Below, in pieces: positions 1 to 39,465 of a stretch of 64,000 nt of DNA (position 1 is its first letter; every line of letters starts with the position of its first letter). A model generated the notes under the pieces. It made no database searches and had not been told where the DNA came from. It saw only the letters and a program-made list of their open reading frames with translations. Position numbers and translations under genes: made by a program. The stretch is from Escherichia coli. Its GTDB lineage: Bacteria; Pseudomonadota; Gammaproteobacteria; Enterobacterales; Enterobacteriaceae. The DNA lies in assembly GCF_003334315.1 (NCBI RefSeq), contig NZ_QOWR01000023.1. One strand, given 5' to 3'.

Positions 1-149
1 GGTTGAGAAGCGGTGTAAGTGAACTGCAGTTGCCATGTTTTACGGCAGTGAGAGCAGAGATAGCGCTGATGTCCGGCAGTGCTTTTGCCGTTACGCACCA
101 CCCCGTCAGTAGCTGAACAGGAGGGACAGCTGATAGAAACAGAAGCCAC
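1..149 (-). CDS. insA: insA (IS1 transposition protein InsA), 5' part only, GTG start at 149 reading leftwards
   Basis: Minus-strand translation from GTG at 147-149 gives [23 protein letters not shown]..., the InsA N-terminus; ORF is cut by the window edge. Confidence 0.7.
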
Positions 150-204
150 TGGAGCACCTCAAAAACACCATCATACACTAAATCAGTAAGTTGGCAGCAT
201 CACC
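1..204 (-). mobile_element. IS1 left end (terminal inverted repeat plus 5' part of insA), truncated by the window edge; element continues to the left of coordinate 1
   Basis: Sequence 1-204 is the reverse complement of the canonical IS1 left end; the 23-bp terminal repeat GGTGATGCTGCCAACTTACTGAT (minus strand) ends at 204; one mismatch to the IS1 copy I remember. Confidence 0.85.
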
Positions 205-536
205 CGTTCATTTTCTGAGCCTGTAAAACATGTGGTGATATAGTCTGAGAGCATAAAAGTTGAGATTCTGTGTATCAAGTCCTGTCTTGGCACCGAATGA
301 ATATTGCTTACGAAGCCCCTTCATGCTTTCCTTGAGAACAATAATTTTATCTTTATGTATTTTTTATAATGATGTCAGATGATTGAAATGCTAAATTATA
401 TCTGAATCAACTTTTCCTTTGCTAAAGGTATAGAAATAACTGCAAGGCTGTATTTTGTAATTGCCAATTTAAAAATGTCAATTTGTTTTTAATTATGTTT
501 TTGTAATAAGTTTGAAGACACAAAAAAATAATATAA

Positions 537-570
537 TAACAAAAATCCTCCAGCCTTGTAGGCCAGAGGA
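537..570 (-). terminator. Putative rho-independent terminator downstream of the integrase gene
   Basis: Minus-strand hairpin CCTCTGGCC-tacaa-GGCTGGAGG (two G-U pairs) followed by ATTTTTGTT, 45 bp after the int stop. Confidence 0.4.
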
Positions 571-615
571 TAAAATACTTAATTGAGGAAAACATCAGGG
601 AAAAGTATTTCTGAC

Positions 616-1800
616 TTAACTTTCCCGGCTGGAGAGTGAATCAATGTAATCAGCGTACCATTGCATCATTTCACGGCGGCCATCGAGATACAGGGCATGA
701 TTATAGGTACCCCTGATGGAATTTTTATCCACATGAGCTAACTGCATTTCAATCCAGGCGGAGTTAAAGCCTTGTTCATGCAGAATTGTACTCATGGTGT
801 GTCTGAAACCATGCCCTGTGAGTCTTCCCTTATATCCAAGTAATTCAATTACTTGGTTAATGCTTTCCTTACTAATTGGTTTGCGGGGATCATTTCTACC
901 GATAAAGACTAGGGGATGATGTTTTGAGATTGGTTCAAGCTGCTTAAATAGCATAATAACCTGCTCAGAGAGCGGCACAATATGAGGTCGCTTCATCTTC
1001 ATTACTTCTGCCGGGATCTCCCACAATTTTGTCTCAAAATCGATATCTTCCCAGCGTGCAAAACGCAGTTCTTGTGTTCGTACGCCGGTTAACATAATGA
1101 TCTGAGTAGCTGTCTTAGTGATTATACTTCCGGTATAACCCGCCAGATCGTTGAGGAAGTGGGGAAGTTCATTAGCAGTAAGAAAGGGAAAATGTACTTT
1201 TTTCGGTGTAGCTAAAGCACTGGCAAGATCGGGGGCTGGGTTATAGTCTGCCCGGCCAGTAACAATTGCATAGCGGAACACCTCACCACAGCGCTGGCGT
1301 ACCTTGCGCATTTTCTCCAGAGCTCCACGTTTTTCCATTTTACGCAGTGCTTCCAGTAACTCCATTGGTTTGATTTCGGCAATAGGGCGCTTGCCAATGT
1401 AGGGAAAAATGTCTTTTTCAAAGGTATCAATGATTTCATCACGATAGCGTAATGACCACCGATCGGCTTTTGACTGGTGCCATTCGCGAGCAATAGCCTC
1501 GAACGTATTTTTCAGACTTATTTGCTGCGCGATTTTTTCTTCCTTTTTTGCCTCCCCTGGATCGCCTCCAGCAGCGAGGAGTTTCCTGGCTTCACTGCGT
1601 TTCTCGCGAGCATCGGCTAGCGTTACATCGGGGTATACGCCAATAGAAAGCATCTTTTCTTTACCAGCAAAGCGGTACTTCATGCGCCAGTATTTAGAAC
1701 CATTAGTGTTAATCAGTAGATACATACCGCCGCCATCAGCAAGCTTATAGGGTTTGTCTTTGGGTTTTGCGGTTTTCACTTTGATATCGGTTAATGCCAT
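616..1800 (-). CDS. int: P4-family tyrosine integrase (phage/island integrase), full length 394 aa
   Basis: ORF track 394 aa; N-terminus MALTDIKVKTAKPKDKPYKLADGGGMYL and C-terminal HGFRHT and LAHVDKNSIRGTYNHALY motifs (HxxR and catalytic Tyr) typical of P4-like integrases; sits directly next to the 3' end of a tRNA gene. Confidence 0.95.
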   Translation of the reverse strand: MALTDIKVKTAKPKDKPYKLADGGGMYLLINTNGSKYWRMKYRFAGKEKMLSIGVYPDVTLADAREKRSEARKLLAAGGDPGEAKKEEKIAQQISLKNTFEAIAREWHQSKADRWSLRYRDEIIDTFEKDIFPYIGKRPIAEIKPMELLEALRKMEKRGALEKMRKVRQRCGEVFRYAIVTGRADYNPAPDLASALATPKKVHFPFLTANELPHFLNDLAGYTGSIITKTATQIIMLTGVRTQELRFARWEDIDFETKLWEIPAEVMKMKRPHIVPLSEQVIMLFKQLEPISKHHPLVFIGRNDPRKPISKESINQVIELLGYKGRLTGHGFRHTMSTILHEQGFNSAWIEMQLAHVDKNSIRGTYNHALYLDGRREMMQWYADYIDSLSSRES

Positions 1801-2099
1801 GACATCCTCCGGCTTTTGATGAATTCATGTTCCTGAGGGGGATTTCTGCCAGTAACTAACCTGATACCCCCAATACACCCCTTGTATAACAAAGATGTTG
1901 TTAAAAGCCGTTGTTATGTATCACATTTTTCCTATTATGGGGGTGCTTGTATTTCAATAGGAAATAACACCCCCTAAAGTACCCCCAAAAGAAACTTGAT
2001 ACGGGGTGAAGTAGGTTGACCTCAGGATACAAATAAATACTGATATACAAGGGATTAGAAGAGATTTATTGACATTGGGAGAGTTCAGAAGAGGTAAAC

Positions 2100-2194
2100 T
2101 GGCGGAAGATCACAGGAGTCGAACCTGCCCGGGACCGCTGGCGGCCCCAACTGGATTTGAAGTCCAGCCGCCTCACCGGAGACGACGATCTTCC
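2100..2194 (-). tRNA. selC: tRNA-Sec (selenocysteine tRNA, selC), 95 nt including CCA
   Basis: Minus-strand sequence GGAAGATCGTCGTCTCCGGTGAGGCGGCTGGACTTCAAATCCAGTTGGGGCCGCCAGCGGTCCCGGGCAGGTTCGACTCCTGTGATCTTCCGCCA matches E. coli selC as I remember it; long extra arm and UCA anticodon. Confidence 0.97.
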
Positions 2195-2486
2195 GCGCCT
2201 CGATTGCTACATGGAGGCGGGGCGCATTATAGCTACTTCCTTGAGTTTCTACATCCCCCAGATCAGTTTTTTCCGCCTAATACACGCAGCGTATTATCAC
2301 GAAAGCATTATAGTTCATATAAAACCCATATTTTACAATGATATATGAGCGGAATTAACGCTACCACGATCACATAAAACAAGAATCATAAATTAATAAC
2401 CAGATATCGGAATATTCGCTCTCACAGGGATGGTTTACAAAATGCGTTATCGGTCTCAGCACCCCTATAGCATCAAGGAAAAGCAG

Positions 2487-3869
2487 ATGAAGAGTGAAGT
2501 GTTGTCCGTTAAAGAGAAAATTGGTTATGGCATGGGAGACGCCGCCAGCCACATTATTTTCGATAACGTAATGTTATATATGATGTTCTTTTATACCGAT
2601 ATTTTTGGCATTCCTGCCGGTTTTGTCGGAACCATGTTTTTGGTCGCTCGTGCACTGGATGCGATTTCCGATCCTTGCATGGGGTTGTTGGCCGATCGAA
2701 CGCGCTCTCGCTGGGGTAAATTTCGTCCGTGGGTACTGTTTGGCGCACTGCCATTCGGGATCGTCTGTGTACTGGCCTATAGCACTCCAGATCTCAGTAT
2801 GAACGGCAAAATGATCTATGCAGCAATTACTTACACCCTACTTACCTTACTTTATACCGTCGTCAATATCCCTTACTGCGCATTGGGTGGTGTAATCACC
2901 AATGACCCGACTCAGCGTATCTCGCTGCAATCCTGGCGTTTTGTGCTGGCGACCGCGGGAGGCATGCTTTCTACTGTTCTGATGATGCCACTGGTTAATT
3001 TAATTGGCGGTGATAATAAACCACTCGGTTTCCAGGGCGGTATCGCGGTCCTTTCCGTGGTGGCATTCATGATGCTGGCATTTTGTTTCTTCACCACTAA
3101 AGAACGCGTTGAAGCACCACCTACAACAACGTCTATGCGGGAAGATTTACGTGATATCTGGCAAAACGACCAGTGGCGGATTGTCGGTTTACTAACCATT
3201 TTCAATATCCTGGCGGTGTGCGTACGCGGTGGGGCGATGATGTATTACGTCACATGGATTTTGGGCACGCCGGAAGTGTTTGTCGCTTTTCTCACCACTT
3301 ATTGCGTGGGTAACCTGATTGGTTCCGCACTGGCAAAACCTCTGACCGACTGGAAATGTAAAGTCACTATCTTCTGGTGGACGAACGCCCTGCTGGCAGT
3401 GATTAGCCTCGCGATGTTCTTTGTTCCCATGCAGGCCAGCATCACTATGTTTGTCTTCATCTTCGTGATTGGTGTGTTGCATCAACTGGTGACACCTATC
3501 CAGTGGGTAATGATGTCCGATACCGTCGACTACGGCGAGTGGTGCAATGGTAAACGCCTGACCGGGATCAGTTTTGCTGGCACGCTGTTTGTGCTCAAAC
3601 TGGGGTTGGCCTTCGGCGGCGCTCTTATCGGCTGGATGCTGGCTTATGGCGGATATGATGCGGCAGAAAAAGCGCAGAACAGCGCCACGATTAGCATCAT
3701 TATTGCGCTATTCACGATTGTTCCGGCGATCTGTTATTTGCTGAGCGCGATTATCGCTAAACGCTACTACTCACTCACGACGCACAATCTGAAAACCGTT
3801 ATGGAACAGCTGGCTCAGGGTAAACGCCGTTGCCAGCAACAATTCACCTCTCAAGAAGTGCAGAACTAA
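2487..3869 (+). CDS. yicJ: GPH-family glycoside/xyloside:cation symporter YicJ
   Basis: ORF track (2430-3869); known N-terminus MKSEVLSVKEKIGYGMGD begins at ATG 2487; 12-TM-like hydrophobic profile; synteny with yicI. Confidence 0.9.
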   Translation: MKSEVLSVKEKIGYGMGDAASHIIFDNVMLYMMFFYTDIFGIPAGFVGTMFLVARALDAISDPCMGLLADRTRSRWGKFRPWVLFGALPFGIVCVLAYSTPDLSMNGKMIYAAITYTLLTLLYTVVNIPYCALGGVITNDPTQRISLQSWRFVLATAGGMLSTVLMMPLVNLIGGDNKPLGFQGGIAVLSVVAFMMLAFCFFTTKERVEAPPTTTSMREDLRDIWQNDQWRIVGLLTIFNILAVCVRGGAMMYYVTWILGTPEVFVAFLTTYCVGNLIGSALAKPLTDWKCKVTIFWWTNALLAVISLAMFFVPMQASITMFVFIFVIGVLHQLVTPIQWVMMSDTVDYGEWCNGKRLTGISFAGTLFVLKLGLAFGGALIGWMLAYGGYDAAEKAQNSATISIIIALFTIVPAICYLLSAIIAKRYYSLTTHNLKTVMEQLAQGKRRCQQQFTSQEVQN

Positions 3870-8079: not shown

Positions 8080-9471
8080 TTACTGTTTTTCTGGTGGGAA
8101 AATCAGATTCAGCACGATGGCAGTAATACCGCCCGCGGCGATCCCGGAGGAGAGCAGGTTTTTCAGCCATTCAGGGGCAAACTGCAAAATCAGCGGCTGC
8201 TGAGACACGCCCAGACCAACCGCCAGCGACAGCGCGATAATCAGAATCGCCCGACGGTTCAGCGGCTCACGAGAAACGATACGCACACCGGAGGCGGCGA
8301 TGGTGCCAAACATTACAAGCGTTGCGCCGCCCAGAACCGGTTCTGGAATGTGTTGTACAAAACCGCTCACTGCCGGGAACAGACCCAGCACGATCAACAT
8401 CAGCGCGACGACAAAACCGACATAGCGGCTGGCAACACCAGTCAACTGGATCACTCCGTTGTTTTGCCCGAAGCAGGAGTTCGGGAAGGTGTTAAACACC
8501 GCCGAAACAAACGAGTTCAGGCCGTTTGCCAGCACGCCGCCTTTCAGGCGTTTCATGTACAGCGGACCGGACACTGGCTGTTCGGAAACGTCAGAGGTCG
8601 CCGTGATATCGCCAATGGTTTCCAGCGAAGTGATCATAAAGACCAGCATCAGCGGCAGCAGCAGACTCCATTCAATGCCAAGACCGTAATAGAGCGGCGT
8701 TGGCACCATAATCAGTTCTTGCGTCATAGGTTCGTTGCTTTCTGGCAACATGCCCATAAACCACGCCAGCGCATATCCGGCCGCCATCGCAATTACCAGT
8801 GAGGCCACGCGTAAGTAAGGGTTACGTTGACGGTTAAGCAGGATAATTAAGGCTAAGACCACGCCTGCCAGCAGCAGATTTTTCGGTGCGCCGAAGGTGT
8901 TATCGCTCATGGCTGCGTAACCGCCGCCAATGGACGTTAACCCAACCTGAATTAGCGACAGGCCGATAATCATCACCACAACGCCAGAAACCAGCGGCGT
9001 AATAATGCGGCGCGCCAGATGCAGAACGCGGGAGATCACCATCTCGGTGCAACTTGCCAGCATCAACGTGCCGAACAAAGCCGCCATCATGGTAGGAACA
9101 TCAGCACCACCGGTTTTCAGCGCGGTACCGCCCATAATCAGCGGGGCAACAAAGTTGAAGCTGGTGCCCTGAATAGACAACAGCCCGGAGCCAACCGGAC
9201 CCCAGGCCTTAATTTGAATAATCGATGCCACACCGGAGGCAAACAGCGACATACTAATAATGTGTTGCGTGTCTTGTGCCGGTAAACCCAGCGCCTGGCA
9301 GATTAATAGCGCTGGCGTGATCACCGCAACGAACATCGCCAGCAGATGCTGACAGGCGGCAAACAGGGTTTGAGGAAGCGGCGGACGATCTTCAAGACGG
9401 TAAATCAGTTCGCTGTTTTGAGTCTGCGCAACCGGTTGCGCATTTTCTGACTCGAGGGTGGAAACAGACAT
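8080..9471 (-). CDS. xanP: xanthine permease XanP (NCS2 family; formerly YicE)
   Basis: ORF track 466 aa; N-terminus [35 protein letters not shown]; polytopic membrane protein. Confidence 0.9.
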
Positions 9472-9750
9472 CGAAAACAATCCCGTGGTAGCAAAGCGGG
9501 CATTTTAGCTGACCGAAAGAGAAAAGCAAACGTTTGCCACATCCTCATCTAAATATTTAAATGAGATAAATGCACTTTTTTATATAACTTTTGGTATTTT
9601 TCTGCTTAAAATCCATGCCATTTGTTCATTAACAGCTGAGAATTTGACCCAGGAAAGCATAACTCGATACCCGTCATAGTTCATGAAGTTGCCACTGCGC
9701 GATGAAGTATGACGAGTATGAAAGAGTGATGCGGATACAAAGGAGTAACT

Positions 9751-10956
9751 ATGTTTCATCTCGATACTTTAGCAACGCTTGTTGCCGCAACGCTGACGTT
9801 GCTGCTCGGGCGTAAGTTGGTCCATTCCGTCTCCTTTTTGAAGAAATACACCATACCGGAACCTGTTGCGGGTGGTTTGTTGGTGGCGCTGGCGCTACTA
9901 GTACTGAAAAAAAGCATGGGCTGGGAAGTCAACTTTGATATGTCCCTGCGCGATCCGTTAATGCTGGCTTTCTTCGCCACCATTGGCCTGAACGCCAACA
10001 TTGCCAGTTTGCGTGCCGGTGGGCGTGTGGTTGGCATCTTCTTGATTGTGGTTGTTGGTCTGTTGGTGATGCAAAATGCCATTGGCATTGGTATGGCTAG
10101 CTTGTTAGGGCTTGATCCGCTGATGGGGCTGTTGGCCGGTTCTATTACGCTTTCCGGCGGTCACGGTACGGGCGCTGCGTGGAGTAAATTGTTCATTGAA
10201 CGTTATGGCTTCACCAATGCGACGGAAGTGGCGATGGCCTGTGCAACGTTCGGTCTGGTGCTGGGCGGCTTGATTGGCGGTCCGGTGGCGCGCTATCTGG
10301 TGAAACACTCCACCACGCCGAACGGTATTCCGGATGACCAGGAAGTCCCGACGGCGTTTGAAAAGCCGGATGTGGGACGCATGATCACCTCGTTGGTGCT
10401 GATTGAAACTATCGCGCTGATTGCTATCTGCCTGACGGTGGGGAAAATTGTTGCGCAACTTTTGGCTGGCACTGCTTTTGAACTGCCGACCTTCGTCTGT
10501 GTACTGTTTGTTGGCGTGATTCTGAGCAACGGTCTGTCAATAATGGGCTTTTACCGCGTCTTTGAGCGTGCGGTATCCGTGCTGGGTAACGTAAGCTTGT
10601 CGTTGTTCCTGGCGATGGCGTTGATGGGGCTGAAACTGTGGGAGCTGGCTTCGCTGGCGCTGCCGATGCTGGCGATTCTGGTGGTACAGACCATCTTCAT
10701 GGCGTTGTATGCCATCTTCGTTACCTGGCGCATGATGGGCAAAAACTACGATGCGGCAGTGCTGGCTGCGGGTCACTGTGGTTTTGGCCTCGGTGCAACG
10801 CCAACGGCAATCGCCAACATGCAGGCGATCACTGAACGCTTTGGCCCGTCGCACATGGCGTTTTTGGTGGTGCCGATGGTCGGTGCGTTCTTTATCGATA
10901 TCGTCAATGCGCTGGTAATTAAGTTGTATTTGATGTTGCCGATTTTTGCCGGTTAA
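9751..10956 (+). CDS. gltS: sodium/glutamate symporter GltS
   Basis: ORF track 401 aa; highly hydrophobic; conserved position between xanP and recG. Confidence 0.92.
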   Translation: MFHLDTLATLVAATLTLLLGRKLVHSVSFLKKYTIPEPVAGGLLVALALLVLKKSMGWEVNFDMSLRDPLMLAFFATIGLNANIASLRAGGRVVGIFLIVVVGLLVMQNAIGIGMASLLGLDPLMGLLAGSITLSGGHGTGAAWSKLFIERYGFTNATEVAMACATFGLVLGGLIGGPVARYLVKHSTTPNGIPDDQEVPTAFEKPDVGRMITSLVLIETIALIAICLTVGKIVAQLLAGTAFELPTFVCVLFVGVILSNGLSIMGFYRVFERAVSVLGNVSLSLFLAMALMGLKLWELASLALPMLAILVVQTIFMALYAIFVTWRMMGKNYDAAVLAAGHCGFGLGATPTAIANMQAITERFGPSHMAFLVVPMVGAFFIDIVNALVIKLYLMLPIFAG

Positions 10957-16364: not shown

Positions 16365-19542
<3,178 letters not shown>

Positions 19543-19832
19543 GGTTCTCTCCCTAAAAATCTGTCTGGCAGGGTAGCGATTTGTGCGCATTGTCACGATT
19601 GAGATTTTTTAAGGTGAGGGGAAATTGATAACTTGTAGTTATGTGAAATCGCTATTTTCTGTAGCAGAGATGCATTCTTCTGACTTCTTGTCTGAGAAAA
19701 TGCATAAGAAAAAATAGGTTAAAACTGAGGGGGGAAAAGAAAGGTGCAATATTTAGCCATTGTGTTCACTGCACCTGGACCTTGGCTTACGCATCGGGTG
19801 TCTCAATCAACAAAAAGAGTTTTTAGTTTCTG

Positions 19833-25852: not shown

Positions 25853-26527
25853 GTGAAGGTGAAAAACAATGCACAGCTGTTGATGCCGCGCGAAAAAATG
25901 CTGAAGTTTGGTATTAGCGCCTTAACGGATGTCGAGCTGCTGGCGCTATTTCTGCGTACCGGAACGCGCGGTAAAGATGTATTAACCCTGGCAAAAGAGA
26001 TGCTGGAGAATTTCGGCTCTCTTTATGGCTTGTTAACCTCTGAATATGAACAATTTAGTGGTGTTCATGGAATTGGCGTAGCGAAATTTGCCCAGTTAAA
26101 GGGGATTGCTGAACTGGCGCGACGTTACTACAACGTGCGGATGCGTGAAGAAAGCCCTTTACTCAGCCCGGAGATGACGCGGGAATTTTTACAAAGCCAG
26201 CTCACGGGTGAGGAGCGGGAGATCTTTATGGTGATCTTTCTCGACTCCCAACACCGGGTTATAACGCATAGCCGTCTTTTTTCCGGCACGCTAAACCATG
26301 TTGAAGTCCATCCTCGGGAAATTATCCGCGAAGCGATAAAAATAAACGCCTCGGCGCTGATCCTTGCACATAATCATCCTTCGGGTTGTGCTGAACCCAG
26401 TAAAGCGGATAAACTCATTACTGAACGGATAATAAAGAGTTGTCAGTTCATGGATTTACGCGTGCTCGACCATATCGTGATTGGGCGTGGAGAGTATGTT
26501 TCTTTTGCCGAACGCGGCTGGATTTAA
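25853..26527 (+). CDS. radC: RadC-like JAB-domain protein (YicR)
   Basis: ORF track 224 aa; JAMM-like motif HNHPSG; conserved position before rpmBG. Confidence 0.9.
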
Positions 26528-26722
26528 CCCGCTATGCGCGATCCTTCGGGATCTTTGTCTGTTCGGGACTTGAGCACATCGCTGAGTCAGCGTATACTAC
26601 GCCACCTTTGAGAATCTCGGGTTTGGCATTTGGGCCTGGCAATCGAGAGTTCACATAGAACTGCGATGACCGGGCTGTAAAGCCTGACGAGGCGCCAATA
26701 CCCCATACGAAGCTCGAGCTAA

Positions 26723-26980
<258 letters not shown>

Positions 26981-26997
26981 GTACTTAGAGGAAATAA

Positions 26998-27168
<171 letters not shown>

Positions 27169-27188
27169 TTCTCGCTTTGATGTAACGA

Positions 27189-27216
27189 AAAACCTCGCTC
27201 CGGCGGGGTTTTTTGT
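27189..27216 (+). terminator. rho-independent terminator after rpmBG
   Basis: Hairpin CCTCGC-TCCG-GCGGGG followed by TTTTTTGTT. Confidence 0.7.
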
Positions 27217-27265
27217 TATCTGCTTACCCCCATATTGATTGCATCTGTTCATTCCTGGAGATGCT

Positions 27266-28075
27266 ATGCCTGAATTACCCGAAGTTGAAACCAGCCGCCG
27301 CGGCATAGAACCGCATCTCGTTGGTGCAACCATTCTTCATGCAGTGGTGCGCAACGGACGCTTGCGCTGGCCGGTTTCAGAAGAGATCTACCGTTTAAGC
27401 GACCAACCAGTGCTTAGCGTGCAGCGGCGGGCTAAATATCTGCTGCTGGAGCTGCCTGAGGGCTGGATTATCATTCATTTAGGGATGTCTGGCAGCCTGC
27501 GCATCCTTCCAGAAGAACTTCCCCCTGAAAAGCATGACCATGTGGATTTGGTGATGAGCAACGGCAAAGTGCTGCGCTACACCGATCCGCGCCGCTTTGG
27601 TGCCTGGCTGTGGACCAAAGAGCTGGAAGGGCATAATGTGCTGACCCATCTTGGACCGGAGCCGCTTAGCGACGATTTCAATGGTGAGTATCTGCATCAG
27701 AAGTGCGCGAAGAAAAAAACGGCGATTAAACCGTGGCTGATGGATAACAAGCTGGTGGTAGGGGTAGGGAATATCTATGCCAGCGAATCACTGTTTGCGG
27801 CGGGGATCCATCCGGATCGGCTGGCGTCATCACTGTCGCTGGCAGAGTGTGAATTGTTAGCTCGGGTGATTAAAGCGGTGTTGCTGCGTTCGATTGAGCA
27901 GGGTGGTACAACGCTGAAAGATTTTCTGCAAAGTGATGGTAAACCGGGCTATTTCGCTCAGGAATTGCAGGTTTACGGGCGAAAAGGTGAGCCGTGTCGG
28001 GTGTGCGGTACGCCGATTGTGGCGACTAAACATGCGCAGCGGGCAACGTTTTATTGTCGGCAGTGCCAGAAGTAA
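27266..28075 (+). CDS. mutM: formamidopyrimidine-DNA glycosylase (Fpg/MutM)
   Basis: ORF track; [21 protein letters not shown]-terminus; C-terminal zinc finger [26 protein letters not shown]. Confidence 0.96.
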
Positions 28076-28113
28076 TTCATGCGCGCCGGATGGCATACCA
28101 TCCGGCATAAACG

Positions 28114-29878
<1,765 letters not shown>

Positions 29879-30204
29879 AGTAAATAGCTGACTTATGGAT
29901 GTGCTGGGGATTCTATGTATTTAGCTGTGGCTTTACCATTACTTTTCCCGTTTTTGACTTAAATAGCAATTTACCCGCCAATTCTTGCTGAACATCTATA
30001 CTTTTTTTGTATTTTTATGCGATTCATTGATTTCTGCTGTACGTGCAGGAAGGAATCGCAGAGCAACAGTGAAAGAATATGGTTGCTAATGATTTTATTT
30101 GATTGATTTCTTTATTGAAAATCAACAATGTGCTTAAAAATCATTCGGGTCGGATTGCCGCGAAAGAAGTGATACACTAGCGCGTCAATATCAGTGCGGT
30201 ATCA

Positions 30205-30245
30205 GTATTCAGGTAGCTGTTGAGCCTGGGGCGGTAGCGTGCTTT
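30205..30245 (+). promoter_or_regulatory. JUMPstart element with ops site (GGCGGTAGCGTG at about 30229-30240) in the waaQ operon leader; RfaH-dependent antitermination
   Basis: Exact ops consensus GGCGGTAGCGTG about 50 bp upstream of waaQ. Confidence 0.8.
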
Positions 30246-30290
30246 TTCTGCTTCACCTTAATCGGATAATCTCAACAAAAAGAGTTACTT

Positions 30291-31349
30291 GTGGATAAGC
30301 CATTTCGAAGAATTTTGCTCATTAAGATGCGTTTTCATGGGGATATGTTATTAACTACTCCCGTCATTAGTTCGCTGAAAAAAAATTACCCTGACGCAAA
30401 AATCGATGTGCTGCTTTATCAGGACACCATCCCGATCCTGTCTGAAAATCCAGAGATTAACGCGCTCTACGGCATAAAAAATAAAAAAGCAAAAGCCTCA
30501 GAAAAAATTGCCAACTTTTTTCATCTCATCAAGGTATTACGTGCCAATAAGTATGACCTTATCGTCAATCTCACCGATCAATGGATGGTTGCTATACTGG
30601 TTCGCTTATTAAATGCCCGTGTGAAAATTTCCCAGGATTATCATCATCGGCAGTCTGCTTTTTGGCGTAAAAGTTTCACCCATTTGGTGCCGTTGCAGGG
30701 TGGAAATGTGGTGGAAAGTAACTTATCCGTGCTGACCCCATTGGGAGTTGATTCGTTGGTGAAGCAGACAACCATGAGTTACCCGCCTGCAAGCTGGAAA
30801 CGTATGCGTCGCGAACTTGATCACGCTGGTGTTGGACAAAATTATGTGGTTATCCAACCTACGGCGCGGCAAATCTTCAAATGCTGGGACAACGCCAAGT
30901 TTTCCGCTGTGATTGATGCCTTACATGCTCGTGGTTATGAAGTTGTTCTGACGTCCGGCCCAGATAAAGACGATCTGGCCTGCGTCAATGAAATTGCGCA
31001 GGGATGCCAGACGCCACCAGTAACGGCGCTGGCTGGAAAGGTGACCTTCCCGGAACTTGGTGCGTTAATCGATCATGCGCAGCTGTTTATTGGCGTTGAT
31101 TCCGCACCGGCGCATATTGCCGCTGCAGTTAATACGCCGCTGATATCGCTGTTTGGTGCGACAGACCATATTTTCTGGCGTCCCTGGTCAAATAACATGA
31201 TTCAATTCTGGGCGGGAGATTACCGGGAAATGCCAACGCGCGATCAGCGTGACCGAAATGAGATGTATCTTTCGGTTATTCCGGCGGCAGATGTCATTGC
31301 TGCTGTCGATAAATTACTGCCCTCCTCCACGACAGGTACGTCGTTATGA
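30291..31349 (+). CDS. waaQ: LPS heptosyltransferase III WaaQ (GT9); the true start is probably the ATG at 30327 (MRFHGDMLL)
   Basis: ORF track; GT9 heptosyltransferase; first gene after the JUMPstart; stop overlaps the waaG start (ATGA). Confidence 0.9.
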   Translation: MDKPFRRILLIKMRFHGDMLLTTPVISSLKKNYPDAKIDVLLYQDTIPILSENPEINALYGIKNKKAKASEKIANFFHLIKVLRANKYDLIVNLTDQWMVAILVRLLNARVKISQDYHHRQSAFWRKSFTHLVPLQGGNVVESNLSVLTPLGVDSLVKQTTMSYPPASWKRMRRELDHAGVGQNYVVIQPTARQIFKCWDNAKFSAVIDALHARGYEVVLTSGPDKDDLACVNEIAQGCQTPPVTALAGKVTFPELGALIDHAQLFIGVDSAPAHIAAAVNTPLISLFGATDHIFWRPWSNNMIQFWAGDYREMPTRDQRDRNEMYLSVIPAADVIAAVDKLLPSSTTGTSL

Positions 31350-32470
31350 TCGTTGCTTTTTGTTTATATAAATATTTTCCCTTTGGCGGTTTGCAGCGTG
31401 ATTTTATGCGTATTGCTCAGACAGTCGCCGCCCGAGGTCATCATGTTCGGGTTTATACCCAGTCGTGGGAAGGCGAATGCCCTGATGTATTTGAACTGAT
31501 CAAAGTGCCGGTTAAATCGCATACCAATCACGGGCGCAATGCGGAGTATTTTGCCTGGGTGCAAAAACATTTACGCGAACATCCCGTCGATAAAGTCGTT
31601 GGATTCAACAAAATGCCGGGGCTGGACGTTTATTATGCCGCTGATGTTTGTTATGCCGAGAAAGTAGCGCAGGAAAAAGGCTTTTTCTATCGCCTGACGT
31701 CACGTTATCGCCATTATGCCGCCTTTGAGCGGGCAACCTTCGAACAGGGCAAGCCGACACAGCTGCTGATGCTGACAGATAAGCAAATCGCCGATTTCCA
31801 GAAACATTATCAGACTGAAGCGGAGCGTTTTCATATTCTGCCACCGGGGATTTATCCTGATCGTAAATATAGCCAGCAGCCAGCCAATAGCCGTGAAATC
31901 TTCCGTAAGAAGAATGGAATAACCGAACAACAATATTTATTGTTGCAGGTCGGTTCAGACTTCACGCGTAAAGGTGTCGATCGTTCCATTGAAGCACTTG
32001 CTTCGTTACCGGATTCGCTGCGCCACAACACATTGCTATATGTTGTTGGGCAGGATAAACCGCGAAAATTTGAGGCACTGGCAGAAAAACGCGGCGTGCG
32101 CAGTAATGTTCACTTCTTCTCGGGGCGCAACGATGTCTCGGAATTAATGGCGGCGGCGGATTTATTACTGCATCCTGCCTACCAGGAAGCGGCGGGAATT
32201 GTGCTGCTGGAAGCGATTACTGCAGGATTACCGGTACTAACAACTGCCGTTTGTGGCTATGCGCATTATATTGTCGACGCTAATTGCGGCGAGGCTATTG
32301 CTGAGCCATTCCGCCAGGAAACATTGAATGAGATTTTACGCAAAGCGTTAACGCAATCTTCATTGCGCCAGGCTTGGGCGGAAAATGCGCGACATTATGC
32401 TGATACACAAGATTTACACAGTCTGCCAGAGAAAGCGGCGGATATCATAACGGGTGGTCTGGATGGTTGA
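31346..32470 (+). CDS. waaG: LPS core glucosyltransferase I WaaG (GT4)
   Basis: ORF track 374 aa, same length as K-12 WaaG. Confidence 0.93.
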
Positions 32471-33260
32471 ACTTAAAGAGCCGTTTGCCACGTTATGGCG
32501 CGGCAAAGATCCTTTTGAGGAAGTTAAAACCTTGCAGGGTGAGGTATTTCGTGAACTGGAAACTCGCCGTACTCTGCGCTTTGAAATGGCGGGCAAAAGC
32601 TATTTTCTCAAATGGCATCGCGGCACGACCCTGAAAGAGGTAATCAAAAATTTACTCTCATTGCGGATGCCAGTATTAGGCGCTGACCGCGAATGGAATG
32701 CGATTCATCGACTGCGGGATGTCGGCGTTGATACTATGTATGGGGTGGCATTCGGCGAAAAAGGCATGAATCCGCTGACCAGAACCTCGTTTATTATTAC
32801 CGAAGATCTGACACCAACCATAAGTCTGGAAGATTACTGTGCTGACTGGGCGACCAACCCACCAGATGTTCGCGTAAAGCGTATGCTTATTAAGCGTGTC
32901 GCGACGATGGTGCGCGATATGCATGCTGCGGGCATTAATCACCGTGACTGTTATATCTGTCATTTCCTGCTGCACTTGCCTTTTTCCGGTAAGGAAGAGG
33001 AGTTAAAAATTTCGGTAATTGACCTGCACCGGGCGCAGCTTCGCACGCGCGTTCCACGTCGTTGGCGCGATAAAGATCTTATTGGACTTTATTTTTCTTC
33101 GATGAATATTGGCCTGACTCAGCGGGATATCTGGCGGTTTATGAAGGTGTATTTTGCCGCTCCGCTTAAAGACATTCTCAAGCAGGAACAAGGACTGCTG
33201 TTGCAAGCAGAAGCAAAAGCCACAAAAATCAGGGAAAGAACGATTCGAAAATCGTTGTAA
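32463..33260 (+). CDS. waaP: LPS core heptose(I) kinase WaaP
   Basis: ORF track; [21 protein letters not shown]; kinase motif [10 protein letters not shown]. Confidence 0.93.
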
Positions 33261-33302
33261 CCCGTAACTTATTTTTGCCAAAATTTTGGATACAGAATAA
33301 AT

Positions 33303-34310
33303 ATGTCTCAACTCAATGATAGTGACATCATCCTTTTTGAGTATAATTTTCATTATCAAAATATAAGATCTAAAAATACTCTTGATATAGCATTTGGTAT
33401 TGACAGAAATTTTCTTTTTGGATGTGGTGTAGCCATCGCATCTATTCTATTAAACAATAGAGAAATCTCTTGTGAATTTCATGTTTTCACAGATTATATC
33501 AGTGATAAAGACAAATTATATTTTTCTGATTTAGCAAAACAATATAATTCAAGAATTAATATTTATGTTATCAATTGTGATAAGCTGAAGTCATTACCAA
33601 GCACGAAAAACTGGACTTACGCAACATATTTTCGATTTATAATTGCAGATTATTTCTATCATAAACATGAAAAAATACTATATCTTGATGCAGATATTGC
33701 TTGCAAGGGTAGTATTAAAGAACTCTTAGATTATCAATTTTCTACTAATGAAATTGCCGCAGTTGTAGCTGAAAGAGATGTTGAATGGTGGCAAAATCGA
33801 GCCTCGGTATTAACTACACCACAGTTAGCTTCTGGATATTTCAATGCTGGTTTTTTACTGATAAATATTGATGAGTGGAATCTAAATAACATTTCGTCAA
33901 AAGCTATTGAAATGTTGCGTGACCCAGATTGGGTAAGTAAAATCACCCACCTTGATCAAGATGTACTGAATGTATTATTGAATGGTAAAGTGAAGTTTAT
34001 TTCGGAGAAATATAATACCCGATATAGTATTAACTATGAATTAAAAGACAAAGTTGATAATCCAGTCAATGATGACACCGTGTTTATACACTATGTGGGA
34101 CCTACAAAACCCTGGCATGAGTGGGCTGACTATCCGGTGTCACGTAGTTTTTTGATCGCCAAAGCAGCTTCTCCGTGGAGTAAAGAAGATTTACTTAAAC
34201 CTGTAAATAGCAATCAGTATCGGTATTGTGCAAAACATAAATTTAAACAAAAGCATTATATGGCAGGCATTTTTAATTATTTAAAGTATTATAAAGAAAA
34301 ATGCTTCTAA
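33303..34310 (+). CDS. waaI: outer-core GT8 glycosyltransferase, R3-type WaaI (UDP-galactose:(glucosyl)LPS alpha-1,3-galactosyltransferase)
   Basis: ORF track 335 aa; GT8 DxD motif LYLDADIA; AT-rich; position after waaP as in the R3 locus. Confidence 0.75.
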   Translation: MSQLNDSDIILFEYNFHYQNIRSKNTLDIAFGIDRNFLFGCGVAIASILLNNREISCEFHVFTDYISDKDKLYFSDLAKQYNSRINIYVINCDKLKSLPSTKNWTYATYFRFIIADYFYHKHEKILYLDADIACKGSIKELLDYQFSTNEIAAVVAERDVEWWQNRASVLTTPQLASGYFNAGFLLINIDEWNLNNISSKAIEMLRDPDWVSKITHLDQDVLNVLLNGKVKFISEKYNTRYSINYELKDKVDNPVNDDTVFIHYVGPTKPWHEWADYPVSRSFLIAKAASPWSKEDLLKPVNSNQYRYCAKHKFKQKHYMAGIFNYLKYYKEKCF

Positions 34311-34335
34311 AGATTTAAGGTTAAAATAATTCATT

Positions 34336-35043
34336 ATGATATATAATAAAACGATAAATGGGTTGAAAGTTTTCATAAAAGATAATGATCCCTTTTATGA
34401 GCAAGTTCTAAATGACTTTTTAACTTGCAGGGTTAAAACATTAAAAGTTTTTCGTTCTATTGATGATACTAAAGTCATTCTTATTGACACTGCTCGTGGA
34501 CCTCTTGTACTTAAAGTTTATGCGCCAAAGCATAAAATGACCGAACGTTTCTTAAAATCTTGCATAAAAAAAGATTATTATGAAAATTTAATTTATCAAA
34601 CCGATCGGGTACGTGGTGAAGGCATCCAATCAATTAATGACTATTTTTTGCTAGCTGAACGTAAAACATTAAATTTCGCTCATTATTATATTATGCTCAT
34701 TGAGTATATTGAAGGTGTCGGGTTAAATGAGTATTTGGAAATTTCTGAAGATCTGAAGGATCAATTATCAGAATCGATAAAAGAGTTGCATCAGCATGGA
34801 ATGGTGTCTGGCGATCCTCATAAAGGAAATTTTATAGTATCCGAAAAAGGTTTAAGACTAATTGACCTTTCAGGTAAAAAAACAACCGCTGTTTTAAAAG
34901 CAAAAGATCGCATTGATCTTGAACGGCACTATAATATAAAAAATGAATTGAAAGACTTTGGCTATACATATCTTATATTCAAAAAGAAAATTAAAAAAGT
35001 AATCAGGGATGTAAAAGTCAAACTAGGATTGAAGAGCAAATAA
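34336..35043 (+). CDS. waaY: LPS core heptose(II) kinase WaaY
   Basis: ORF track 235 aa; Kdo/WaaP-family kinase fold (GDPHKGNF); AT-rich. Confidence 0.8.
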   Translation: MIYNKTINGLKVFIKDNDPFYEQVLNDFLTCRVKTLKVFRSIDDTKVILIDTARGPLVLKVYAPKHKMTERFLKSCIKKDYYENLIYQTDRVRGEGIQSINDYFLLAERKTLNFAHYYIMLIEYIEGVGLNEYLEISEDLKDQLSESIKELHQHGMVSGDPHKGNFIVSEKGLRLIDLSGKKTTAVLKAKDRIDLERHYNIKNELKDFGYTYLIFKKKIKKVIRDVKVKLGLKSK

Positions 35044-35067
35044 TGATTATGATGAAGGGTAATTAAA

Positions 35068-36081
35068 TTGGATTTTAAACATCTTACTCAATTTAAAGAT
35101 ATAATTGAACTGGACAAGCGCCCCGTTAAACTTGATGAACGGGAAACGTTTAATGTCTCATGGGGTATTGATGAGAACTACCAGGTTGGGGCTGCGATTT
35201 CAATTGCTTCAATTCTTGAAAATAATAAACAAAACAAATTTACCTTTCACATAATCGCTGATTACTTAGACAAAGAGTATATTGAATTATTATCACAATT
35301 AGCAACGAAGTATCAAACAGTAATTAAATTATATCATATTGATTCTGAGCCATTGAAGGCGCTACCTCAATCAAATATCTGGCCAGTATCTATTTATTAT
35401 CGTTTGCTTTCATTTGATTATTTTTCTGCGCGATTGGATTCATTATTATATCTTGATGCTGATATCGTCTGTAAGGGTTCATTGAACGAGTTAATAGCAT
35501 TAGAGTTTAAAGATGAATATGGGGCAGTGGTAATTGATGTAGATGCTATGCAAAGTAAAAGCGCTGAGCGTTTGTGTAATGAGGATTTTAACGGTAGCTA
35601 TTTTAACTCTGGTGTAATGTATATTAATTTACGGGAATGGTTAAAACAAAGACTAACGGAAAAATTCTTTGATCTATTATCAGATGAGTCAATTATAAAA
35701 AAATTAAAGTACCCGGATCAAGATATTTTAAACTTAATGTTTCTACATCATGCTAAAATATTACCGAGAAAATATAATTGTATTTATACTATAAAGTCAG
35801 AATTTGAAGAAAAAAATAGTGAATATTACACCCGGTTTATTAATGATGACACTGTCTTCATACATTATACTGGTATAACTAAGCCATGGCATGATTGGGC
35901 GAACTACGCCTCTGCAGATTATTTTCGTAATATTTATAATATATCACCATGGAGAAATATACCTTATAAAAAAGCTGTTAAAAAACATGAGTACAAAGAA
36001 AAATATAAACACTTGCTTTACCAGAAAAAATTTCTCGATGGTGTTTTTACAGCAATTAAATATAATGTTATGAAAGGTTAA
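35068..36081 (+). CDS. waaJ: outer-core GT8 glycosyltransferase, R3-type WaaJ (alpha-1,2-glucosyltransferase); TTG start
   Basis: ORF track 337 aa; GT8 motif LLYLDADIVCKG; paralogous to the preceding GT8 gene. Confidence 0.72.
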   Translation: MDFKHLTQFKDIIELDKRPVKLDERETFNVSWGIDENYQVGAAISIASILENNKQNKFTFHIIADYLDKEYIELLSQLATKYQTVIKLYHIDSEPLKALPQSNIWPVSIYYRLLSFDYFSARLDSLLYLDADIVCKGSLNELIALEFKDEYGAVVIDVDAMQSKSAERLCNEDFNGSYFNSGVMYINLREWLKQRLTEKFFDLLSDESIIKKLKYPDQDILNLMFLHHAKILPRKYNCIYTIKSEFEEKNSEYYTRFINDDTVFIHYTGITKPWHDWANYASADYFRNIYNISPWRNIPYKKAVKKHEYKEKYKHLLYQKKFLDGVFTAIKYNVMKG

Positions 36082-36089
36082 TATACGAG

Positions 36090-37232
36090 ATGGTTGATAA
36101 AATAATATTTACGGTTACTCCTATTTTTTCAATTCCTCCTCGCGGAGCGGCTGCTGTTGAAACGTGGATGTATCAGGTTGCTCAGCGTACCAATTTTCCA
36201 AATCGTATTGTTTGTATCAAAAATCCAGGATACTCAAATTACACCTTTGTTAATGATAATTGTAGTATTCATAGGGTTGGATTCAGTCGCATATATAAGC
36301 GGTTATTTCAAAAATGGACAAGACTTGATCCTCTTCCATATTCACAGAGAATATTGAATATTGCACATGATTTTCCTATAACGAAAGAAAGTGTTATTGT
36401 AGTTCATAATAGCATGAAGCTATACACTCAAATTCGTAAGCGAGCTCCTCAGGCAAGAGTGGTTATACATATGCATAATGCATTTGAACCAAAATTGCTT
36501 GAGCAAAATGTTAAAATGATAGTGCCTAGTTTATACTTGAAAAAGTATTACCAATCTTATTTAGCAAATGCAGATATTGAGATTGTACCAAATGGAATTG
36601 ATTTAGAAACCTATCAATCTAATTTTCAGCCGATCACTAGAAGCGAACTTAATATCTCCCCTGAAGAGAAAATTATTTTTTATGCTGGGCGTATCGTCCC
36701 TGACAAAGGCATATTGCTGTTGATGCAATCATTCGAAAAATTGGCCGCTGCTCACAAAAATTTAAAATTAGTTGTGATTGGTGATTATACAGAAATGAGT
36801 AAAAGTGACAAAGGTACATATCAACGCAATGTCAGGGAAATTGCAAAACGTTTGAAGGATCGTTGCATTATGTTAGGAAGCATACCGCCTGAAAAGATGC
36901 ATTGTTATTACCCACTGGCAGATTTAGTCGTCATTCCTTCCCAGTTCCAGGAACCATTTTGCATGGTGGCAATTGAAGCTATGGGTGCTGGTAAGCCTGT
37001 TTTAGTGAGTACGCGTGGGGGGATGACGGAATTTGTCAAAGAAAATACAACGGGATTCCATTTAAAAGAACCTATGACTGCAGACTCCATAAGCAGCGAT
37101 ATTTTAAAAACGTTAGCGAATCCTGAATTAACAGCAGTTGCAAAGCAAGGTCAGGACTTTGTGTTTGATCACTACAGTTGGGATGGCGTAACTCAAAGAT
37201 TCGAAGAGGTTATTCATAATTGGTTTGAATAA
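36090..37232 (+). CDS. waaD: GT4 glycosyltransferase, R3-type WaaD (terminal outer-core hexosyltransferase)
   Basis: ORF track 380 aa; GT4 EX7E motif EPFCMVAIEAMGAGKP; last gene of the waaQ operon, convergent with waaL. Confidence 0.7.
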   Translation: MVDKIIFTVTPIFSIPPRGAAAVETWMYQVAQRTNFPNRIVCIKNPGYSNYTFVNDNCSIHRVGFSRIYKRLFQKWTRLDPLPYSQRILNIAHDFPITKESVIVVHNSMKLYTQIRKRAPQARVVIHMHNAFEPKLLEQNVKMIVPSLYLKKYYQSYLANADIEIVPNGIDLETYQSNFQPITRSELNISPEEKIIFYAGRIVPDKGILLLMQSFEKLAAAHKNLKLVVIGDYTEMSKSDKGTYQRNVREIAKRLKDRCIMLGSIPPEKMHCYYPLADLVVIPSQFQEPFCMVAIEAMGAGKPVLVSTRGGMTEFVKENTTGFHLKEPMTADSISSDILKTLANPELTAVAKQGQDFVFDHYSWDGVTQRFEEVIHNWFE

Positions 37233-37234
37233 AT

Positions 37235-37264
37235 AAAAAGGCCGCATTATGCAGCCTTTTTTAT
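37235..37264. terminator. bidirectional rho-independent terminator between convergent waaD and waaL
   Basis: AAAAAGGCCGCATTATGCAGCCTTTTTT: imperfect hairpin flanked by A-run and T-run. Confidence 0.6.
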
Positions 37265-37267
37265 TTT

Positions 37268-38476
37268 TTACTTGTTTTTCATCGCTAATAATAAGCCGGC
37301 GTAAACGCCTAATAAATTTGGTTCAATTTGTTCTACGTTTCCACGGATAACAAAATAACCTATAAAAGATAGTAAGATTATATAATATGCATTATATGGT
37401 GAGCGATATTTATTCTTGACGCCATTTTTTATACACTCTTTCAATATTGCACAGTATAGCATCATAAGACTTACCAGCCCTAATAAACCAGTGCCAAACC
37501 AGATGAATAGCGCAAAATTATGTGGCCCTATTGATTGTCTAAAGGTCCATTCTGGATAATCAATGACACGTTTATTATAGACATCTTTATATGCAACGTT
37601 ACCGTAACCATAACCAATAACAGGATTTTCTAATATTAGATCGAGTGCGCTGCCTTGAGTACCATTTGCATAGCGATAAGAACTATTAGTTTGTTGAAGT
37701 TTATACGTTAGCTTTGCGGTCATCTCCTTATGTGTGAAAATAACCGACAATGCAATGATGGCAACCATTACTCCTACTAATAGTAACTTCCATTGTTTAA
37801 ACATCAGAATCCATATTAATCCAATGACTAACACGGAAAGCCAGGCCCCTCTGGATAAAGTTCCTAATATCAGAAAAATAAAAATAACGCTTAGAACCAC
37901 AAAAGAAATGCGGTATTTTGCTGATTTGATAAGCCAGAGATTTAACAATGCAGGGAATAAAAAGACCATCGAGTCAGAAATGCTACGGTGTCTATAATCT
38001 GCGAATGGCATTATCCCTTGTTGATAGTCCTTATAATAGGTAATCAATTCAGAAAAACAGCGTAAGCCCAACGCACTAATAAATGAGAAGAAAACGATTT
38101 TTTCGACATCTTCTCTTTTCTCGTCTCTCAATATGATCGGTATTGCTATTGTGCATAGTAAAGTATTCTCAATAATAGCTTTGAAAATTTCCTTCATGCT
38201 AGCACCTGCATCAGGGGATTGAAGAAGTGACAGCAATGCAGCAATAGTTAATATGGCAACACTACCAAAAAGAAATGTTTTAAATAGTGAGAGATAGTGT
38301 TTTGGCCGTTTGCAGAGATAGACGATTGTCGTTATTGTCATAAGAATAACAATAAGATGTTTATACCTTGTAATCCCACCCAAAAAATAGGTGGTAATGA
38401 ATAAGAATACGAGAGCTCTGTTCCAGTACGCTATCCAGTTTTTTTTCTCGAGAGAGAAAAATAATGTTGAGGTCAT
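37268..38476 (-). CDS. waaL: O-antigen ligase WaaL
   Basis: ORF track 402 aa; polytopic membrane protein, very AT-rich; convergent with the waaQ operon, upstream of waaC. Confidence 0.85.
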   Translation of the reverse strand: MTSTLFFSLEKKNWIAYWNRALVFLFITTYFLGGITRYKHLIVILMTITTIVYLCKRPKHYLSLFKTFLFGSVAILTIAALLSLLQSPDAGASMKEIFKAIIENTLLCTIAIPIILRDEKREDVEKIVFFSFISALGLRCFSELITYYKDYQQGIMPFADYRHRSISDSMVFLFPALLNLWLIKSAKYRISFVVLSVIFIFLILGTLSRGAWLSVLVIGLIWILMFKQWKLLLVGVMVAIIALSVIFTHKEMTAKLTYKLQQTNSSYRYANGTQGSALDLILENPVIGYGYGNVAYKDVYNKRVIDYPEWTFRQSIGPHNFALFIWFGTGLLGLVSLMMLYCAILKECIKNGVKNKYRSPYNAYYIILLSFIGYFVIRGNVEQIEPNLLGVYAGLLLAMKNK

Positions 38477-39465
38477 CTTATCTCCGATGTCAACTTATTG
38501 GTTATTATTTCAAGATTTAAATTTTGAAAAACGGTTTGAGCTGGCAAATCTGCAAGAGACATACTTGTAGAACGACACTCTACTTGATTCTTCCCATACC
38601 CACCAATTAATCCCGGATCGGTTGGTCCATAAACCGTGATATTGGGTCTATCCAGTGCCGCCGTTAAATGGCTTAACCCCGTATCCACCGACACTACAAA
38701 TTTAGCCCCGGCCAGCACGCGGGCAACGCCTTCCAGACTCATCTTCGGCAATACTTCAACATAAGCAAATCCTTCCGCCAGTCGTTTCGCCCGTTCTTCC
38801 TCATGCGGCGCGCCCCACGGAAGTTTAATCCGTATTCCTGAATCAGCCAGTAAACCAATCAATTCTCGCCAGTGTTCTTCCGGCCAGTGTTTATCATCAC
38901 GGGTCGTCGCATGAAGAAATACGGCATATTCGCCAGCATCTGTAGGCAGGTTCGTCAGAAAATGCTGTGCGATAGCATAATCGCCCTGGGTTTGCGGTTT
39001 GCTATAGCCCAAACTTTTGGCAAACAGTTCGCGGGTGCGTTCTACGGCGTGCTGCTGTTTTGCAATATGATGCTTACAATTGTAAAACAGGCTGGCTAAA
39101 GGTTCGCGAGCGGTTTGCCAGTCCAATCCATGCTTTACGCCATGCGCCAGACGTGTCACCAGTGCCGCGCTTTTTACCAGCCCCTGAGCGTCGATAACTG
39201 CGTCATAGTTCTCTGCTTGTAGCGCTTCACGAAACGCTTTGCGTTCAGCTTTTATGGGGGCCGAGAACCAGGCTTTACGCCAGCGACGTATTGCCACAGG
39301 AATAACTCGCTCAACGGCAGCGTGCCAGGAAGGAATCTGTGCGAACCCTTCTTCCACCACCCAGTCAAACTTAATCCCTGGGATTGCCTGCTGGGCATCA
39401 GTGAGTGCGGGCAACGTATGGAGAACATCGCCCATCGACGATGTTTTAACGATCAAAACCCGCAT
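38473..39465 (-). CDS. waaC: LPS heptosyltransferase I WaaC
   Basis: ORF track 330 aa; MRVLIVKTSSMGDVLHTLPALTDA; 4-bp overlap with waaL. Confidence 0.92.
   Translation of the reverse strand: MRVLIVKTSSMGDVLHTLPALTDAQQAIPGIKFDWVVEEGFAQIPSWHAAVERVIPVAIRRWRKAWFSAPIKAERKAFREALQAENYDAVIDAQGLVKSAALVTRLAHGVKHGLDWQTAREPLASLFYNCKHHIAKQQHAVERTRELFAKSLGYSKPQTQGDYAIAQHFLTNLPTDAGEYAVFLHATTRDDKHWPEEHWRELIGLLADSGIRIKLPWGAPHEEERAKRLAEGFAYVEVLPKMSLEGVARVLAGAKFVVSVDTGLSHLTAALDRPNITVYGPTDPGLIGGYGKNQVECRSTSMSLADLPAQTVFQNLNLEIITNKLTSEIR

Follow-up and report, generated by a model that had tools for sequence, protein, structure and literature searches.

That the waaQ operon has a JUMPstart/ops element and is controlled by RfaH has been on record for decades. 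In K-12, RfaH control of waaQ has been published, as has RirA, a leader RNA that contains ops (PMC6358824; PMC5736990; PMC5449661). According to work on K-12 and CFT073, RfaH loads at the polymerase paused at ops and remains bound to the end of the operon, excluding NusG, inhibiting Rho and coupling translation, and waaQ heads an operon that RfaH regulates (PMC6358824, PMC5736990, PMC9765446, PMC5449661). Published work describes AT-rich DNA that Rho and H-NS silence and that RfaH rescues (PMC9765446; PMC5449661). The 12-mer GGCGGTAGCGTG is the ops12 oligonucleotide used in structural work on RfaH bound to ops, where substitutions of C3 and T6 lowered RfaH recruitment, those of G4, G5, A7 and G8 abolished it, and T11-G12 is the pause dinucleotide (PMC5995543).

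Here, we compare with these systems a waaQ leader found in a 64-kb stretch of DNA, hereafter the window. We consider, with a probability of roughly 0.93, that the element in this leader is the JUMPstart/ops belonging to the LPS-core operon waaQ (rfaQ) of an R3-type E. coli, and that it loads RfaH.

The JUMPstart/ops element in the waaQ leader

The 12-mer GGCGGTAGCGTG is present on the plus strand (Table 1) and has no second match in the 64 kb, on either strand, when up to one mismatch is allowed. The ops consensus GGCGGTAGnnTG likewise has a single match in the window, at the waaQ-leader site. The functional consensus GGCGGTAGNNTG matches exactly once, compared to 0.13 matches expected by chance, and 13 out of 100 shuffles of the window contain at least one match. 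Taken alone, the ops 12-mer is therefore only moderately improbable, so that context and conservation have to decide its identity.

The 12-mer forms the 3' end of a full 39-nt JUMPstart (30203-30241, plus strand), which reads CAGTATTCAGGTAGCTGTTGAGCCTGGGGCGGTAGCGTG. The Rfam covariance model RF01707 scores 55.2 bits at exactly this interval (gathering score 35), with an alignment that covers model positions 1-38 of 38 and an E-value of 2.5e-11 in a 2.5-kb search or 6.4e-10 over the whole window. The match is full-length and includes the 5-bp stem of the consensus; one inserted loop base is the only notable departure from it. A scan of the whole window against Rfam returned JUMPstart once, and the only other family was tRNA-Sec. 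The sequence-only reading had reported an exact ops sequence in the waaQ leader and had placed it at 30205-30245. Both statements are borne out; the interval is essentially right and includes ops in full and 37 of the 39 bases of the JUMPstart.

The window ops carries C3, G4, G5, T6, A7 and G8 as well as T11-G12, all on the coding strand of waaQ; judged by its sequence, the element has all that is described as needed in cis for RfaH to be recruited. It is located in a 412-bp gap between the divergent waaA and waaQ genes. The coding strand of waaQ is the non-template strand, and the orientation is thus as ops function requires.

The 8-base core of ops, GGCGGTAG, has five further copies in the window, at 10967, 19330 and 60763 (plus strand) and at 25163 and 56519 (minus strand). 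The total of six compares with 1.13 expected and is reached in none of 100 shuffles, a surplus that may be caused by codon composition, which shuffling ignores. T11-G12 is absent beside all five of these copies, and we set them aside as RfaH sites.

The JUMPstart ends 49 nt upstream of a GTG that is the waaQ start in the PGAP annotation of O157:H7. An alternative ATG at 30327, the counterpart of the MG1655 waaQ start, lies 85 nt past the end of the JUMPstart. By eye, the Shine-Dalgarno sequence is poor at both starts (AAGAG, 6 nt, GTG; TAAG, ATG), in agreement with published work in which the leaders of waaQ and rfb are said to have no ribosome-binding site (PMC6358824).

RirA is reported to have its 5' end in common with waaQ mRNA and to include both ops and JUMPstart (PMC5736990). 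The MG1655 RefSeq ncRNA rirA (b4760, 3808166-3808238) maps without gaps onto 30185-30257 of the window. As 30185 is homologous to the 5' end of MG1655 rirA, transcription is predicted to start there, which would put ops at +46 to +57. A candidate extended -10 ends 7 nt before this position (Table 1), and other genera retain its motif, TGnTACA(C/A)T, in their waaQ leaders. A generic sigma-70 scan of the leader did not call this candidate. The sole call of that scan in the leader was a weak TTGAAA-18-AATCAT at 30115-30144, and we considered the scan uninformative as a guide to the start site since it missed the extended -10 implied by rirA. A terminator scan of the leader found none. For annotation, the element marks the 5' UTR and the RirA homologue of the operon.

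Table 1. Features of the waaQ locus and of the selC end of the window (positions in the 64-kb window)
Feature	Position	Strand	Basis and remarks
tRNA-Sec (selC)	2104-2194	-	Rfam scan
waaA (Kdo transferase)	28601-29878	-	NCBIfam NF004385 equivalog, 905.7 bits; divergent from waaQ
Candidate extended -10 (TGaTACACT) for the waaQ/RirA transcript	30170-30178	+	ends 7 nt before the inferred start
RirA homologue, 73 nt, 5' end of waaQ mRNA	30185-30257	+	gap-free alignment to MG1655
JUMPstart stem-loop	30210-30228	+	arms CAGGT (30210-30214) and GCCTG (30224-30228); loop AGCTGTTGA; stem of the Rfam consensus structure
ops element GGCGGTAGCGTG	30230-30241	+	non-template strand; predicted RfaH recruitment and pause site
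U-rich tract CTTTTTCTGCTT	30242-30253	+	directly 3' of ops; terminator-like tail, putative function
waaQ (heptosyltransferase III)	30291-31349	+	NCBIfam NF007742 (RfaQ) equivalog, 713 bits
waaG (31346-32470) and waaP (to 33260)	31346-33260	+	inner-core part; 98.5% shared with R1; NCBIfam and O157:H7 annotation
R3-specific outer-core block waaI(O)-waaY-waaJ-waaD	33303-37232	+	AT-rich
waaI(O), 3-alpha-galactosyltransferase family	33303-34310	+	NCBIfam, O157:H7 annotation
waaY	34336-35043	+	NCBIfam, O157:H7 annotation
waaJ, second GT8 gene	35068-36081	+	NCBIfam, O157:H7 annotation
waaD, GlcNAc transferase	36090-37232	+	NCBIfam, O157:H7 annotation
Hairpin with T-runs on both sides	37235-37261		between convergent waaD and waaL; terminator scan match on the minus strand
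waaL (O-antigen ligase), R3 type	37268-38476	-	NCBIfam NF012031, 692.7 bits; convergent with the waaQ operon

Core type and mosaic structure of the locus

A published R3 primer pair in waaJ and waaD yields a product of 1,021 bp (PMC13293308). Both primers match the window exactly, at 35152-35174 (plus) and 36153-36172 (minus), to give 1,021 bp in silico; the R1, R2, R4 and K-12 typing primers have no match in the window with up to 2 mismatches. The genes run in the order waaQ-G-P-I(O)-Y-J-D, and waaL, adjacent to waaC, is on the other strand; this is the order annotated in O157:H7, and the waa region is 99.3% identical to that of O157:H7 PV15-279. Gene order, in silico amplicon and identity to O157:H7 all agree with the R3 core type that the sequence-only reading had proposed, so that by sequence the assignment is supported.

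Like waaL, the waaC, waaF and gmhD genes are opposite in strand to the waaQ operon. The hairpin between waaD and waaL has a 12-bp stem and is probably a bidirectional intrinsic terminator that closes the waaQ operon.

The R3-specific waaJ-waaD-waaL block is present in 1,364 of 5,426 complete E. coli genomes. The R3 outer-core cassette is typical of EHEC. Several commensal or livestock E. coli genomes (4.6-4.8 Mb) match the region 20000-44900 of the window at 100% identity, and an R3 cassette in such a commensal/livestock-type backbone would, as the site predicts, use the same anti-termination route. An intact yicG-like ORF is found at 18925-19596, at which place (1177-3489 of its locus) O157:H7 PV15-279 has an ISEc8 (IS66-family) insertion. 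Taken with the 100% matches to commensal or livestock genomes, this difference shows that the window does not come from O157:H7, its R3 core notwithstanding.

At the left end of the window, a tyrosine recombinase/integrase ORF of 394 aa (616-1800, minus strand) adjoins selC, and a partial IS1 element is present too; genes resembling yicJ and yicI flank selC on its other side. This arrangement (window 1-2194) is found with at least 80% of the query covered in 648 genomes, and it points to a genomic island that integrated at selC and extends leftward beyond the window.

The extent of horizontal exchange depends on the locus with which the window is compared. Relative to R1, identity is 98.5% from waaA to the end of waaP (33260), and beyond this point homology is 66-68% or absent until 38585. 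The GC content is 31-36% in 33261-38584 and approximately 50% in waaA, waaQGP and waaC/F. Compared to R1, then, only the AT-rich outer-core block 33261-38584 appears to have been replaced, with the leader being the same.

Relative to K-12-type sequence, identity is 100% from approximately 26379 to 29967, i.e., to 89 nt beyond the waaA start codon. Divergence from K-12/R2 sets in sharply at 29968: identity to K-12 falls to 52-85% per 100 nt in the leader and to approximately 60-85% in waaQGP. Within this divergent leader, about 30133-30246 forms a conserved island in which the JUMPstart is identical to K-12 at 39 of 39 positions. Identity with both K-12 and R1 resumes at 38585, at the waaL/waaC boundary. 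The mosaic junctions at 29967/29968, 33260/33261 and 38584/38585 are all sharp. A 452-bp intergenic query gave a bimodal result: 4,408 genomes match it at 99% identity or more, and 935 at 60-80%.

Because divergence begins upstream of the element, at 29968, the exchanged unit in the K-12 comparison includes the JUMPstart. The cassette swapped relative to K-12/R2 therefore carries its own promoter, leader, waaQGP and JUMPstart, and the JUMPstart is kept by selection, not by a position outside the exchanged segment; in this comparison, it is no resident site behind which new genes were placed. The sequence-only reading had pictured horizontally replaced outer-core genes that stay under the conserved RfaH antitermination system. 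The replacement of the outer-core genes finds support in the break from R1 at the end of waaP and in their GC content of 31-36% versus approximately 50%. A leader kept while genes were swapped describes the comparison with R1 and does not hold against K-12/R2, where the swapped block starting at 29968 includes the leader. The locus offers a clean example of purifying selection, in that a 39-nt island is invariant and the leader and first three genes have diverged or recombined.

In E. coli strain E2 (R2), an IS4-like ISVsa5 (8696-9904 of that locus) is located in the waaA-waaQ gap, upstream of the JUMPstart, and may have displaced the native waaQ promoter.

Conservation, predicted RfaH control and alternative explanations

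The 39-mer occurs exactly in 4,908 of 5,426 complete E. coli genomes and with one mismatch in 496; in 23 of the 5,426, no match was found at the search sensitivity used. We also searched one genome per species with a pattern in which only the loop AGCTG and GGGCGGTAGCGTG were fixed and the stem columns were left free, which yielded at least 120 stretches. Those from Enterobacterales, Aeromonadales, Alteromonadales and Vibrionales were kept, the selection being made by taxon name and not by structure. The 15 excluded stretches come from Longimicrobiaceae, Prevotella, Gemmatimonadetes and other non-Proteobacteria, from an alphaproteobacterial MAG, and from the gammaproteobacteria Pseudomonas, Halopseudomonas, Billgrantia and Modicisalibacter; we treated these stretches from outside the four orders as chance matches. 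Short, low-coverage contigs labelled Arthrobacter, Erysipelotrichia and Thomasclavelia contain rfb-type enterobacterial JUMPstarts, and these contigs are most likely contamination or mis-binned.

The resulting alignment contains 88 distinct sequences among the matches listed, i.e., the window and 87 others. In the 5-bp stem, 93.2% of cells pair, compared to 77.2% in shuffles. Changes on both sides are seen in 4 of the 5 stem pairs, with 56 such cells versus 17 expected, and the covariation score is 0.443 versus 0.166. None of 500 shuffles reaches the observed values, and slid controls are all far lower. The JUMPstart stem is kept by compensatory change, a result that reproduces what Rfam already encodes. 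At the loop-closing position, 61 of the 88 sequences have U.G, a pair that is compatible with the sense strand only and would fit an RNA structure or possibly one formed by the non-template strand.

A WaaQ homologue lies downstream of the JUMPstart in at least 17 loci among the matches listed, usually with waaA divergent upstream. The genera and species concerned include E. albertii, Citrobacter, Kluyvera, Pluralibacter, Shimwellia, Cedecea, Kosakonia, Silvania and Pectobacterium; the order waaA, extended -10, JUMPstart, waaQ is seen in the first eight of these.

Based on the described systems, control of the operon would proceed as follows. Transcription would start near 30185, approximately 45 nt upstream of ops, and RNA polymerase would pause at U11 (30240) within ops. 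The non-template GGCGGTAGCGTG, exposed on the surface of the elongation complex, would fold into a small hairpin that is recognised by RfaH. Upon binding, the C-terminal domain of RfaH would refold from an alpha-hairpin to a beta-barrel, and the protein would stay on the polymerase, where it would exclude NusG and suppress pausing and Rho-dependent termination. RfaH would also bring a ribosome to this leader, whose Shine-Dalgarno sequence is poor, and would carry transcription through the operon of approximately 7 kb, with its AT-rich waaI-Y-J-D genes, to the putative terminator at about 37235-37261. At 31-36% GC, the outer-core genes are the kind of DNA described as being rescued by RfaH, which counts in favour of this reading. 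We also folded the ops 12-mer as single-stranded DNA, which gave -0.9 kcal/mol and a register unlike that in the published crystal structure; nearest-neighbour folding cannot test the RfaH-bound hairpin, and we discarded this calculation.

The rfaH gene was sought in the 64-kb window and is absent from it. All 5,426 complete E. coli genomes carry it; one of them is NZ_OY757949.1, the waa region of which is 100% identical to the window. A literature search found no RfaH experiment for this strain or for any R3 strain, and RfaH action here is extrapolated from the identical K-12 element and from CFT073. The sequence-only reading had taken the element to confirm RfaH-dependent control of the operon, which goes too far: the cis site is perfect and rfaH is universal in the genomes searched, but a site predicts control and does not demonstrate it.

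Might the element act mainly as RNA instead, as an attenuator whose terminated product, RirA, is a decoy for RfaH, with RfaH loading on DNA being secondary or a mere switch? Such a role would be in keeping with the published 73-nt RirA, which originates from the waaQ leader and binds RfaH in an ops-dependent manner (PMC6358824; PMC5736990), and with the G.U pairs in the JUMPstart stem, which fit an RNA or at least a sense-strand structure. Both the minimum free energy fold and the centroid fold of 30185-30330 join +9 to +22 to the ops RNA (+46 to +59) and place the JUMPstart stem on top; CUUUUUCUGCUU is 3' of this predicted hairpin. With RNAalifold, 13 waaQ leaders of several genera yield the same hairpin, in which one-sided changes (UG to CG three times, GU to AU three times) preserve the pairing with the invariant ops. 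In about 10 of 17 waaQ-linked JUMPstarts among the matches listed, ops has a T-run after it. However, the leader fold is no more stable than that of shuffled sequence (z = +1.74), so that we dropped thermodynamic stability as an argument, and the covariation term is small (-1.16 kcal/mol): across the 13 sequences, which are related, just 3 pairs have changes on both sides. The annotated 3' end of RirA (+73) lies approximately 14 nt past the hairpin, outside the U-tract. Moreover, rfb and plasmid JUMPstarts are without such a tail, yet rfb is described as an RfaH target, and the structural work has RfaH reading non-template DNA (PMC5995543). An attenuator would in any case add to the DNA-level mechanism and not exclude it, and we regard a mainly RNA-based role as very improbable.

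A related proposal, which we put forward tentatively and think unlikely, is that waaQ-type JUMPstarts are embedded in a conserved terminator-like hairpin that serves as an RfaH-gated attenuator. If true, RfaH-loaded polymerases would read through and others would terminate and release RirA, which would titrate RfaH; this would constitute a self-limiting feedback loop confined to the LPS-core operon, with no counterpart at JUMPstarts of the rfb type. The terminator-like hairpin could be the source of RirA.

A chance match, or a decayed relic without a regulatory role in this strain, deserves next to no credence: the GGCGGTAGNNTG matches in shuffled windows and the five other GGCGGTAG copies without evident role are outweighed by the whole-window E-value of the full 39-nt model, by a position and strand exactly those of the K-12 element, by the 4,908 exact 39-mers within an otherwise divergent leader and by compensatory stem variation across genera, and these conservation data effectively refute it. 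We therefore return to the JUMPstart/ops as the predicted loading site for RfaH and compare it with its known counterparts.

Comparison with other JUMPstart and ops sites

We aligned the element with the JUMPstarts of other waa, rfb and hly operons; a mismatch in the ops core, which the sequence-only reading had named as the observation that would tell against it, was not found.

The alpha-hemolysin operon hlyCABD, chromosomal or on plasmids, has the GGCGGTAG core and T11-G12 on the sense strand upstream of hlyC, in the form GGCGGTAGCATG (A at position 10), approximately 634 nt from hlyC. The upstream half of the JUMPstart is degenerate at this site, such that only the ops 12-mer aligns, and an Rfam scan of two alpha-hemolysin loci gave no JUMPstart match even at E-values up to 0.1. 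We had also considered the EHEC ehxCABD operon on pO157 Sakai as an hly comparator, but no ops or JUMPstart is present within 1.1 kb upstream of its hlyC, and the alpha-hemolysin loci were used instead.

In K-12 (galF-rfbB intergenic region) and in O75, the JUMPstart of the rfb operon has the ops GGCGGTAGCGTG, the loop AGCTG and the layout in common with the window, and scores 60 to 61 bits with RF01707. The K-12 rfb JUMPstart differs from the waaQ element at 6 of 39 positions and has no T-run after ops. Of three plasmid polysaccharide clusters, one has ops and the AGCTG loop identical to the waaQ element, and the two others each differ at one ops base. All rfb and plasmid JUMPstarts are above the Rfam threshold (52.7-61.1 bits), and their stems compensate: CAGGT/GCCTG in waaQ, CTGGT/GCCAG in rfb, and TTGGT/GCCAA and ATGGT/GCCAT in the plasmids.

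Among waaQ loci, the 39-mer is identical in R3 (the window and O157), R1 (ATCC 25922) and K-12. One R2 locus has a single difference, A9 to G, which turns an A-U pair of the stem into G.U and keeps the pairing. The closest described counterpart is the K-12 waaQ (rfaQ)/RirA leader (b4760), in which the JUMPstart is the same at 39 of 39 positions, occupies the same place relative to waaA and waaQ and has the same inferred start; the identical stretch reaches from the extended -10 region past ops (30140-30246). Differences are seen in the rest of the leader and in waaQGP, in the T-run after ops, which has six T in K-12 and five in the window, and in the downstream genes, which are waaI-Y-J-D (R3) in the window and waaS-B-O-J-Y-Z-U in K-12. 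The waaQ JUMPstart/ops and its control by RfaH are already well known, and the element in the window is, base for base, that of K-12.
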